Part shown: positions 13,093 to 15,354 of the stretch, piece by piece
How positions within the stretch are numbered: position 1 is the stretch's first letter
How the letters are laid out: each line of letters begins with the position of its first letter
Virus record (IMG/VR): IMGVR_UViG_2880378312_000001
Source of the DNA: a virus
Taxonomy: Duplodnaviria > Heunggongvirae > Uroviricota > Caudoviricetes
Direction: 5' to 3' (one strand)
Length of the DNA stretch: 20,976 bases
Position numbers and translations under genes: made by a program
Notes under the pieces: model-generated
Seen by the model: only the letters and a program-made list of their open reading frames with translations
Told to the model about the DNA's origin: nothing
The model's database searches: none

Positions 13093-13308
13093 ATGTACCA
13101 GATGGAAAAAATCACAACGGGTGTGTCATACACCACGTCAGCGGTGGGGACGGGATACTGGTTACTGCAGCTGCTGGACAAAGTCTCTCCGTCCCAGTGG
13201 GTGGCGATAGGCGTGCTGGGGAGTCTGCTGTTTGGGCTGCTGACATATCTGACGAACCTGTATTTCAAGATTAAAGAAGACCGGCGTAAGGCGGCGCGGG
13301 GAGAGTAA
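13093..13308 (+). CDS. Phage-21-type pinholin (class II holin) with dual-start motif M-Y-Q-M
   Basis: [71 protein letters not shown] closely resembles phage 21 S from memory. Two in-frame ATGs at 13093 and 13102; GGGAGA RBS. Confidence 0.75.
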
Positions 13309-13309
13309 A

Positions 13310-13657
13310 GTGATGAAGAAAAAATACGAACTGGTTGTTAAAGGGATAAATAATTACCCGGATAAGATTACTGTTACTGTGGCACTGGAAATTGGTGGGT
13401 ATCCGTCACTGTTGTTGCCAGATGTGGCGATTAGTCTTGACCGTACTGAAGGTGCCACGCTGGAGTTTTACGAAGCTGAGGCGAAAAAGCAGGCGAAGCA
13501 GTTTTTCATGGATGTTGCTGCCGGGTTATGTGAAGGGGATGGTCCGTTACCGGAAAAGCGTCCCGTAATTTTAGAGGCGCAGGATGTGTTGATAACCTAC
13601 AGAGGAAAACTACCGGGAATAATTACGGGTTCTCTGAAGACTCCACCGCTGGCCTGA
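13310..13657 (+). CDS. Hypothetical protein (115 aa) lying between holin and endolysin
   Basis: Tightly packed ORF starting 2 bp after the holin stop; no motif recognised. May resemble small proteins of cryptic lambdoid lysis cassettes, unverified. Confidence 0.45.
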   Translation: MMKKKYELVVKGINNYPDKITVTVALEIGGYPSLLLPDVAISLDRTEGATLEFYEAEAKKQAKQFFMDVAAGLCEGDGPLPEKRPVILEAQDVLITYRGKLPGIITGSLKTPPLA

Positions 13658-13707
13658 AGACTTAACATATCCAGGGATTTGAAATCGATAAACCCTGATA
13701 AATATCC

Positions 13708-13938
13708 ATGAACGCAAAAATCAGATACGGCCTGTCGGTTGCCGTTCTGGCGCTGATTGGTGCAGGGGCGTCTGCGCCTGAAATCCTCGACCAGTTTCTG
13801 GATGAAAAGGAAGGTAACCACACCACAGCATACCGTGATGGTGCGGGTATCTGGACCATCTGCCGTGGAGCCACCCGGGTGGATGGTAAGCCTGTGATTC
13901 CTGGCATGAAGCTGTCGAAGGGTAAGCGTACAGCCTGA
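13708..13938 (+). pseudogene. SAR endolysin (GH24 lysozyme), N-terminal ~72 codons only; cut by the IS66-family element
   Basis: N-terminal signal-arrest-release-like segment LSVAVLALIGAGASA; lysozyme catalytic spacing E-x8-D-x5-T in EGNHTTAYRDGAGIWT. Reading frame runs into the IS terminus at about 13921 and stops. Confidence 0.65.
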
Positions 13939-13992
13939 ACCGTCTGGTCAGAATCTGACGAATTAGACAAAGTGGTGTCCACCAAATAAGTA

Positions 13993-14394
13993 GTGGGAAC
14001 CAAAGTATCAGATATGCAGAAAAATGTGACTCCCGGCAGGCGAAAAGGCTGCCCTAATTATCCTCCCGAATTTAAACAGCAGCTCGTTGCTGCCTCCTGT
14101 GAACCCGGGATATCCATCTCAAAACTTGCTCTTGAAAATGGCATTAACGCCAATCTGTTGTTCAAATGGCGACAACAATGGCGCGAGGGAAAGCTGCTAT
14201 TACCTTCTTCAGAGAGCCCCCAGCTACTTCCTGTGACTCTCGATGCAGCTGCCGAACAGCCAGAATCGCTCGCAGAGGACCCGGAAACCCTCAGTATCAG
14301 CTGTGAGGTAACGTTCCGGCACGGGACGCTCCGCTTCAATGGCAATGTCAGCGAAAAGCTCCTGACTCTGCTGATACAGGAACTGAAGCGATGA
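13993..14394 (+). CDS. IS66-family accessory protein OrfA (GTG start at 13993; alternative ATG at 14014)
   Basis: Position and size typical of IS66 orf1; sequence recognised from memory as an ISEc8-like OrfA. Confidence 0.65.
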   Translation: MGTKVSDMQKNVTPGRRKGCPNYPPEFKQQLVAASCEPGISISKLALENGINANLLFKWRQQWREGKLLLPSSESPQLLPVTLDAAAEQPESLAEDPETLSISCEVTFRHGTLRFNGNVSEKLLTLLIQELKR

Positions 14395-14738
14395 TCCCGT
14401 TACCTTCCGGGACCAAAATTTGGCTGGTTGCCGGTATCACCGATATGAGAAATGGCTTCAACGGCCTGGCTGCGAAAGTACAAACGGCGCTGAAAGACGA
14501 TCCCATGTCCGGCCATGTTTTCATTTTCCGGGGCCGCAGCGGCAGTCAGGTTAAACTGCTGTGGTCCACCGGTGACGGACTGTGCCTCCTGACCAAACGG
14601 CTGGAGCGTGGGCGCTTCGCCTGGCCGTCAGCCCGTGATGGCAAAGTGTTCCTTACGCAGGCGCAGCTGGCGATGCTGCTGGAAGGTATCGACTGGCGAC
14701 AGCCTAAGCGGCTGCTGACCTCCCTGACCATGCTGTAA
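14391..14738 (+). CDS. IS66-family accessory protein OrfB (TnpB)
   Basis: 115 aa, ATGA overlap with orfA; MIPLPSGTKIWLVAGITDMRNGFNGLAAKV is the typical IS66 Orf2 N-terminus. Confidence 0.75.
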   Translation: MIPLPSGTKIWLVAGITDMRNGFNGLAAKVQTALKDDPMSGHVFIFRGRSGSQVKLLWSTGDGLCLLTKRLERGRFAWPSARDGKVFLTQAQLAMLLEGIDWRQPKRLLTSLTML

Positions 14739-14787
14739 ATCTCTTTATCCTGGTTGTCACAGAATAAGCCCGGTAAAATACGGGCTT

Positions 14788-15354
14788 ATGAACGACATCT
14801 CTTCTGACGACATCTTCCTGCTGAAACAGCGCCTGGCCGAACAGGAAGCGCTGATCCACGCCCTGCAGGAAAAGCTGAGCAACCGGGAGCGCGAAATAGA
14901 CCATCTGCAGGCGCAGCTGGATAAACTCCGCCGGATGAACTTCGGCAGTCGTTCCGAAAAAGTCTCCCGCCGTATCGCACAAATGGAAGCCGATCTGAAC
15001 CGGCTTCAGAAAGAGAGCGATACGCTGACTGGTAGGGTGTATGACCCGGCAGTACAGCGTCCGTTGCGTCAGACCCGCACCCGTAAGCCGTTCCCTGAAT
15101 CACTACCCCGTGACGAAAAGCGACTGTTGCCTGCGGCGCCGTGCTGCCCGAACTGCGGCGGTTCACTGAGCTATCTGGGCGAGGATACCGCCGATGGCGC
15201 ACTCATCACCGGACTGACCTTTCTTGCCCCCAAAGATGCCACACGGGTTCAGGGTTTTTTTCAGCATTTGCAGGTCAGGTTTGGTGACGGGCCGTGGCAG
15301 GATGTTAAGGGGCTGGATGAAGTGGGCAGTGATACAGGCAGAACAGGAGAATGA
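14788..15354 (+). pseudogene. IS66-family transposase (TnpC), N-terminal fragment only
   Basis: Leucine-zipper-like N-terminus and CCPNCGG motif present; the DDE catalytic region is absent (188 codons against roughly 520 expected). Confidence 0.7.

Follow-up and report, generated by a model that had tools for sequence, protein, structure and literature searches.

Proposed stepwise inactivation of the lysis module in prophage remnant Sp17 of Escherichia coli O157:H7, with a probable IS629 excision scar

Prophage Sp17 and its closest described relatives

The region of prophage Sp17 of Escherichia coli O157:H7 consists of two tandem prophages, Sp17a and Sp17b, according to Asadulghani et al. (2009), who scored Sp17 as '+' for integration, 'D' (defective) for lysis, and absent for all other functions, including morphogenesis and packaging; after mitomycin C, circularisation, replication, and packaging of Sp17 were all undetected (PMC2669165). 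Its cargo includes EspM2, NleG8-2, EspW, and NleG6-3 (PMC2323221), here encoded 3' of a tail-fibre remnant. The insertion sequence (IS) IS629 at its Sp17 site, IS.20, is variably present among typical O157:H7 strains and seems absent in the column inferred to be EDL933, the site being confined to that clonal complex (PMC3271280). Here, we consider a DNA stretch of 20,976 nucleotides (IMG/VR record IMGVR_UViG_2880378312_000001, the window), in which the studied region corresponds to the lysis module of Sp17, a degraded lambdoid prophage remnant at the ssrA locus of E. coli O157:H7, and propose that this module has likely been inactivated in four steps, namely, insertion of ISEc8 (IS66 family) in the endolysin gene R, arrival of IS629 (IS3 family), an IS629-associated deletion, and excision of IS629.

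The locus, the lysis defect, the non-inducibility, and the presence/absence polymorphism of IS629 are all already published or annotated, and reading the joint as an excision scar is a small refinement of that published polymorphism. The finding is thus real but ordinary, and has little value as a discovery; its value lies in showing clearly how a prophage may decay step by step: an IS hit is followed by a second IS, an IS-associated 26-kb deletion, and self-removal of the IS, after which a 2-bp scar and a misleading fused open reading frame (ORF) remain.

According to the sequence search, many O157:H7 chromosomes match the window with 100% identity. The counterpart of the window in strain Sakai (NC_002695.2, 3476099-3500291; ECs3489-ECs3501) is annotated as 'prophage Sp17; lambda-like phage', adjoins ssrA, and matches the window in locus, gene order, and breakpoints, with two mismatches across 14 kb of flanks. 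The counterparts of the module are the holin ECs3497, the ydfR-like ECs3496, the short truncated endolysin ECs3495, a partial ISEc8 with tnpA/tnpB (ECs3494/3493), the fibre remnant, and ECs3489. The two loci differ in the copy numbers of variable-number tandem repeats (VNTRs) and at the deletion joint, where Sakai keeps IS629 (1310 bp) and two further bases of ISEc8, and the window lacks these 1314 bp. An ORF fusing the truncated transposase TnpC' with the fibre remnant is a feature of the window that results from the IS629 loss, and is not found in Sakai.

The Stx-type phages YYZ-2008 and PPyecE_EH1910 show the same gene order as the window, that is, Q, esterase, S, ydfR, R, and then the fibre, fibre-C, and NleG genes, with 95-100% identity in the kept parts. 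Both phages, in contrast to the window, retain a full R and Ant as well as the genes for Rz, terminase, head, and tail; the window also has no stx genes.

The deletion joint and the proposed history of the locus

The breakpoints were placed by alignment to the intact cassette of PPyecE_EH1910, the 2442-bp ISEc8 of pO157, and YYZ-2008 gp70. Homology to the intact 177-aa endolysin of PPyecE_EH1910 stops at position 13921, ISEc8 homology ends at 15194, and homology to the fibre begins with codon 337, whose first base is at 15193, so that the last two overlap by 2 bp, in frame. On YYZ-2008, the missing interval, from nt 215 of R to codon 337 of gp70, is about 25.8 kb long and covers the remainder of R and the genes for Ant, the Rz-like spanin, the two terminase subunits, capsid, portal, and the entire tail, along with J, Lom, and the greater part of the fibre gene. 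The ISEc8 truncation is therefore one end of an approximately 25.8-kb deletion, whose other end lies in the tail-fibre gene, and not a loss of the transposase alone. In agreement with this, tblastn of the whole window with the C-terminus of the endolysin and with Rz, the antirepressor, J, and Lom from the reference phages gave no match. An earlier note, made from the letters of the window, described a phage-21-type lysis cassette inactivated by a truncated IS66-family insertion, with the signal-anchor-release (SAR) endolysin cut after about 72 codons by an IS66-family end (GTAAGCG) and with neither an endolysin 3' end nor Rz/Rz1 following. The alignments agree with this description, placing the cut after 71 codons and 1 nt, and the absences hold for the entire window, including the intact copies elsewhere that the note had named as grounds against it. 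Its conclusion that the prophage can neither lyse nor form particles is in line with both the missing genes and the published scoring (PMC2669165).

At the same joint, Sakai, TR01, and PNUSAE019785 carry IS629, the sequence reading ...CCGCCGA-AC-[IS629, 1310 bp]-GA-TGGCG..., compared to ...CCGCCGATGGCG... in the window; in full, the IS629-bearing joint is ...GATACCGCCGA-AC-(IS629: TGAACCGCC...GGCGGTTCA)-GA-TGGCGCAC.... The Sakai annotation shows there 'ISEc8 Family: IS66 partial' (1275 bp) directly abutting 'IS1203 Family: IS3' (1310 bp). The extra AC continues the ISEc8 sequence (CCGCCGAACAGC), and the flanks of IS629 in all three genomes (CCGCCGAAC[IS629]GATGGCG) do not match each other (AAC vs. 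GAT), hence there is no target duplication. The window equals this IS629-bearing state minus 1314 bp (the element and four more bases), lost between two GA dinucleotides. Thus, IS629 occupies exactly this site in three relatives, and the segment lost is the IS with a few flanking bp, bounded by a short microhomology, as in an excision scar.

Among 5426 complete E. coli genomes, in which the junction queries had to be found whole (the query for the junction of truncated R, R', with ISEc8 being 300 bp long), the R'::ISEc8 junction is present in 279. The ISEc8/fibre scar junction occurs in 94 genomes and the tnpC'-IS629 junction in at least 182, the two together accounting for 276 of the 279 R'::ISEc8 carriers.

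An IS with unrelated flanks and without target duplication is a signature of an IS-associated deletion, formed either adjacent to the element or by recombination between two copies, whereas insertion of an IS3-family element duplicates 3-4 bp and adds no bases of the donor flank. Hence, IS629 at the joint without a target duplication indicates that the large deletion was IS629-associated; the extra AC, together with the lack of a duplication, means that insertion of IS629 into the sequence of the window cannot yield the Sakai state; and a GA-to-GA deletion in the IS629-bearing state gives the window sequence exactly. The combination of IS629 at the joint of a large deletion and no target duplication is shared with the IS629-associated deletions of Ooka (2009, as cited in PMC3271280). 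Seen without its IS629-bearing relatives, the junction would pass for unexplained illegitimate recombination.

Two candidate explanations were rejected. Insertion of IS629 into a pre-existing joint is disfavoured by the junction sequences, and recombination at a 6-bp similarity near the joint, GGATAC, would have given GGATACAGATGG, whereas GGATACCGCCGATGG is observed.

In the first case, the IS629-free junction would be ancestral, created by a single illegitimate recombination between tnpC nt 1273 and fibre codon 337, with IS629 inserted later in Sakai-type lineages. The 2-bp overlap is typical of such recombination, and both the high activity of IS629 in O157:H7 and the polymorphism of the site would fit. 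We nevertheless consider this history very improbable, given the two additional ISEc8 bases (AC) and the mismatched flanks of the IS629-bearing state, the predominance of IS629-bearing genomes (at least 182 vs. 94), and the comparison of four genomes, in which two variable sites group the window with Sakai against TR01 and PNUSAE019785, that is, inside the IS629-bearing diversity. This grouping, with which a third informative site conflicts, weakly supports the scar as the derived state.

The proposed history is, then, the following. ISEc8 would first have inserted in codon 72 of R, oriented like the late operon. IS629 would then have become positioned after nt 1275 of ISEc8, within tnpC. An IS629-associated deletion, either adjacent or by recombination of two IS629 copies, would have taken out the remainder of ISEc8, two-thirds of R at its 3' end, Rz/Rz1, the genes for terminase, head, and tail, and fibre codons 1-336, leaving IS629 between tnpC' and the fibre 3' end without a duplication, the state of Sakai and most O157:H7 genomes; the order of these second and third steps is presumed. 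Finally, IS629 and 4 flanking bp would have been excised in the lineage of the window, the ends being joined at the 2-bp GA microhomology.

The last step would resemble near-precise, transposase-dependent excision promoted by IEE, the IS-excision enhancer of O157, whose gene, iee, carried on SpLE1 in Sakai, lies outside the window. IEE is described as promoting transposase-dependent excision of IS629, with adjacent deletions of anywhere between a few nucleotides and more than 40 kb (PMC9943667). In O157, IS629 excision is IEE-dependent and about 10^5-fold more common than in K-12 (PMC9943667; bioRxiv 10.1101/2023.06.07.543989), and nearly all O157 strains carry both iee and the IS629 transposase (PMC9943667). 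The scars described for IS loss lie at microhomologies of 2-4 bp and match the length of the IS to within a few bp, and a model of strand switching is said to be consistent with IS629 excision (bioRxiv 10.1101/2023.06.07.543989). A loss amounting to the IS and 4 bp, at a short microhomology, is likewise shared with IEE-promoted IS629 excision (Kusumoto 2011, as cited in PMC9943667).

As adjacent deletions accompany IEE-type excision, a single event might be envisaged, with the excision of IS629 from tnpC and the approximately 26-kb adjacent deletion occurring together, and the Sakai state being an independent product; the reported range, up to more than 40 kb (PMC9943667), would accommodate it. 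Yet the distal endpoint is identical in both states (fibre codon 337, GATGGCG) and the proximal ends are 2 nt apart. That two 26-kb deletions should have arisen independently and share their terminal base is very unlikely, making this scenario hardly credible.

Several points weigh against the four-step reconstruction. IEE in vitro shows almost no end-joining synthesis with 2-nt microhomologies and requires 4-6 nt (PMC9943667), longer than the 2 bp of the scar; the GA dinucleotide is thus weak support for IEE specifically, as 2 bp can match by chance. Formation of the scar without IEE, via replication slippage, RecA-independent deletion between the two GAs, or the action of transposase alone, would fit so short a microhomology, and overproduction of the transposase alone gives low-frequency precise excision of IS1203v (bioRxiv 10.1101/2023.06.07.543989). 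It seems unlikely, nevertheless, since the deleted segment coincides with IS629 to within 4 bp, pointing to a process that recognises IS ends, and since IS629 excision in O157 is far more frequent than in K-12 and depends on IEE (see above). A further point concerns the pre-deletion state, i.e., full ISEc8 in this R with the R 3' part downstream. A synthetic query for it, in which the right end of ISEc8 was joined to the inferred 8-bp duplication GTCGAAGG and the 3' part of R, had no exact match among the 5426 complete E. coli genomes, so the first three steps are reconstructed rather than observed. IS629 may have landed first in tnpC or in the fibre gene, as one copy or two. Lastly, the argument for the polarity of the change relies on two nucleotides (AC, 1/16 by chance), the insertion rules of IS3 elements, and the four-genome comparison with one of three sites conflicting.

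The same query produced eight apparent matches, of which seven are covered here (the eighth is OkiPb01684), and the examined ones turned out to be full-length copies of ISEc8 that had inserted independently into lysis cassettes of other O157 prophages, each in the late-operon orientation. In FRIK944, whose match pattern is shared by five other strains, ISEc8 lies in ydfR (1709-4150 of the extracted locus), with the 8-bp duplication GGATGTGT; in strain 155, it lies in R after approximately 54 codons (1709-4150 of the extracted locus), with the duplication TGCCGTGG. Together with the insertion at R codon 72 in the window, these are three separate ISEc8 hits in one S-ydfR-R module of approximately 1.1 kb. 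It is decidedly doubtful that ISEc8 insertion in O157:H7 S-ydfR-R cassettes recurs non-randomly, be it by target preference or by selection for lysis-defective, cargo-locking prophages, the recurrence being anecdotal and the query biased towards such insertions. If it did, Sp17 would be an end-point of a repeatable IS-driven domestication with subsequent, self-removing IS629/IEE trimming, and lysis-defective prophages would lock in their effector and esterase cargo.

Remnants of the lysis cassette and of ISEc8

Table 1. Features of the lysis module and adjacent late region, positions as in the window.
Feature	Position	Strand	Basis and remarks
Late antiterminator Q, 207 aa, apparently intact	8810-9433	+	PF03589 Antiterm, E 4e-58; RefSeq 'antitermination protein'
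Candidate late promoter, directly 3' of Q	9476-9504	+	TTGACT-17 nt-GAAACT, read from sequence
NanS-p-type sialate O-acetylesterase gene	11090-12943	+	Pfam (DUF1737 + SASA + DUF6645)
Terminator-like hairpin with U run, 39 nt 5' of holin start	13026-13054	+	Scan; 12-pair stem, -17 kcal/mol, z -2.5
Class II (phage-21 S type) holin, 71 aa, intact	13093-13308	+	PF04971
ydfR/DUF1327 gene, 115 aa, intact, between holin and endolysin	13313-13657	+	PF07041, E 1.8e-46; RefSeq 'YdfR family protein'
SAR-type endolysin gene R, 5' remnant, 71 codons + 1 nt	13708-13921	+	Alignment to intact 177-aa R
ISEc8 (IS66 family), nt 1-1273 of 2442	13922-15194	+	99.9% identity to pO157 copy
ISEc8 left inverted repeat, GTAAGCG	from 13922	+	Alignment; left end reads GTAAGCGTACAG
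ISEc8 tnpA, intact	14014-14394	+	Pfam HTH_Tnp_1
ISEc8 tnpB, intact	14391-14738	+	Pfam TnpB_IS66
ISEc8 tnpC, codons 1-135	from 14788	+	Pfam LZ_Tnp_IS66
Chimeric 188-aa ORF, TnpC 1-135 + fibre 337-389, in frame	14788-15354	+	Pfam, tblastn
Deletion joint and probable IS629 excision scar	15193-15194	.	GA common to ISEc8 and fibre sides
Tail-fibre gene 3' end, last 53 codons + stop, from codon 337 of 389	15193-15354	+	Pfam Phage_fiber_C
Intact 89-aa fibre-C ORF, normally 3' of tail-fibre gene	15356-15625	+	PF06820, E 1e-34; 100% YYZ-2008 gp71

The remnant of R (Table 1) is read as an ORF of 76 codons (13708-13938), which runs five codons into the IS and stops at 13938. It retains the putative SAR segment (residues 7-24, YGLSVAVLALIGAGASAP, are uncharged, with 56% G/A/S/T, a composition that fits such a domain) and E35, D44, and T50, the Glu-Asp-Thr catalytic triad, and lacks residues 72-177. 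In the intact homologue, which matches the phage 21 lysozyme (3HDE/3HDF, E 5.9e-17) and RrrD (4ZPU, 1.2e-16), these three residues align with theirs. Only positions 2-38 of 125 of the Pfam Phage_lysozyme model remain in the window; with two-thirds of the fold lost, R here is a gene remnant, predicted not to be functional. This sets Sp17 apart from phage 21, as the Sp17 endolysin ends at residue 71 and the spanin genes are absent. A single-nucleotide polymorphism (SNP) private to the lineage of the window falls in the same SAR segment, at 13739 (T, compared to C in Sakai, TR01, and PNUSAE019785), changing Ala11 to Val (A11V).

The ISEc8 copy has kept its left end, and its right end (...CGCTTAC) is deleted. 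Intact TnpC has 512 aa, with zf-IS66 at 119-161 and the DDE domain at 175-461. The break is at residue 135, so that the first CxxC of zf-IS66 (CPNC) is kept, the second (CTQC) is lost, and of the three genes and DDE_Tnp_IS66 that make up such an element, the DDE domain and half of zf-IS66 are gone. The earlier note, which had the transposase lost after the zinc motif, is corrected in this respect, as the break lies inside the motif. The copy, the left 52% of the element, is thus an immobile fragment, in contrast to ISEc8 of pO157, which has the full 2442 bp and an 8-bp duplication; 8-bp target duplications are carried by other ISEc8 copies as well.

Further 3', the fibre remnant is 98% identical to residues 337-389 of YYZ-2008 gp70, and it is followed by the fibre-C ORF. 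Hence, the earlier statement that no head or tail genes follow holds for the head genes, and has to be amended for the tail, of which these two pieces are present. Pfam splits the chimeric ORF into LZ_Tnp_IS66 at aa 39-110 and Phage_fiber_C ('prophage tail fibre C-terminus') at aa 135-177. The ORF is a by-product of the deletion and excision, its in-frame fusion being due to chance. RefSeq/PGAP labels it (WP_001303014.1) 'phage tail fiber C-terminal domain-containing protein', and automated annotation of the TnpC'-fibre chimera thus hides the history of the locus.

In PNUSAE019785, 13 clustered mismatches and a 1-bp indel are observed at window positions 14751-14956, at the tnpB/tnpC boundary of the truncated ISEc8, which suggests gene conversion from a diverged IS66-family copy. 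IS629 of this strain is 1309 bp long and annotated as frameshifted.

The holin matches Pfam PF04971 'Bacteriophage P21 holin S' over its full length (E 8.5e-33, 112.6 bits with the cut-off of 26, model positions 1-63 of 64), which places it in the P21 holin S family. With Met at codons 1 and 4 (13093-13104, Met-Tyr-Gln-Met), products of 71 and 68 aa would be possible. The gene, which the earlier note called an intact pinholin with a dual-start motif, is intact and has both Met codons. By composition, two transmembrane segments are predicted: the uncharged stretch 7-28 is 50% Gly/Ala/Ser/Thr with the mean hydropathy of 0.75, consistent with a weakly hydrophobic, SAR-like first segment, and the uncharged stretch 31-58 has the mean hydropathy of 1.21 and is followed by a charged C-terminal tail. 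The full-length family match and two start Met codons three codons apart are shared with the phage 21 pinholin S21 (S21-68/S21-71), a type of holin that makes small heptameric pinholes and depolarises the membrane instead of letting the endolysin out. However, the antiholin S21-71 is defined by an additional positive residue (review PMC9636201), and whereas the extension of S21-71 has this extra positive charge, that of the Sp17 holin, M-Y-Q, contains neither Lys nor Arg. The homologue in the intact phage PPyecE_EH1910 likewise starts with MYQM, so this start is a family trait rather than a sign of decay. The position of ydfR, a gene that the earlier note passed over, is the same in YYZ-2008 and PPyecE_EH1910, and the Qin prophage of K-12 presumably has ydfR between S and R as well.

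The upstream late region and neighbouring genes

Upstream of the cassette, the esterase gene precedes the holin, as it does in Stx-type phages; its homologue in PPyecE_EH1910 is annotated as 9-O-acetyl-N-acetylneuraminic acid deacetylase, and the position in YYZ-2008 is the same. No tRNA genes were found in the window 3' of Q, where Stx phages have them. The candidate promoter behind Q is one that we take to resemble lambda pR' with its Q-binding spacer. Three terminator-like hairpins, at 10848, 10967, and 13026, lie between Q and the holin according to the terminator scan. The early region is lost, an IS30 remnant (5914-6669) abutting the nin genes, and consequently no normal Q promoter remains. 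The promoter scan was uninformative on holin expression, with five sigma-70-like sites compared to 7.3 in shuffled sequence. At window position 10847, TR01 has a 38-bp insertion at the first of the hairpins, 3' of a DUF3927 gene, which looks like a duplication of the hairpin region.

With the intact Q, the pR'-like sequence, and three hairpins upstream, expression of the holin would depend on the supply of Q. Since O157 genomes have about three places similar to Q and its downstream region, Q could be provided in trans during induction of other prophages. It is therefore possible, judging from the gene content, that the holin is made without the endolysin, conditional on Q from the window's own copy or from other prophages in trans.

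The same data bear on whether Q, the late promoter, the esterase, the holin, and ydfR have been retained under selection as a functional unit or are neutral debris; for example, Q could control the esterase, the holin being a passenger or a membrane-depolarising toxin. Q, the esterase, the holin, and ydfR are indeed full length, and the related Q regions of O157 genomes could act in trans. We still regard such selection as unlikely, because no more than a few SNPs separate the compared genomes over 14 kb, and hence intactness carries no selection signal, because Sp17 showed neither circularisation nor replication nor packaging after mitomycin C (PMC2669165), and because of the three hairpins between Q and the holin and the lack of an evident Q promoter.

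The first codon of the window is the start codon of a tyrosine recombinase gene (437 aa), which is preceded in the genome by a second recombinase gene. The 'DNA-binding protein' gene 3' of the recombinase is frameshifted in the window (ORFs 1311-2651 and 2552-2956), compared to the single coding sequence ECs3510 in Sakai. A perfect hexamer VNTR, GCCAGA x20.7, is located at 5281-5404 inside a 412-aa ORF (4262-5500), in a region with a sub-threshold Pfam match to the Glu-Pro-type acidic repeat protein (PARP). It is shorter by 84 bp (14 units) in strain 113 and differs in Sakai too, so the length of the protein is strain-variable. A second perfect hexamer repeat, TATTTC x9.8 (6746-6804), lies between the IS30 remnant and an HNH endonuclease gene, and this gap is the boundary of the tandem prophage remnants, Sp17a and Sp17b of the literature. 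In a literature search, neither hexamer unit matched named loci of multiple-locus VNTR analysis.

Directly 3' of the fibre remnant, positions 15741-18898 carry the effector cargo, namely, an NleG6-3 pseudogene, espW and nleG8-2 on the minus strand, and espM2 on the plus strand. It is followed by a tail-fibre-assembly remnant, a dinI-like gene, and then the tmRNA gene ssrA (19917-20279), the sole RNA gene found in the window. The effectors are intact, although the virion genes have all been lost.

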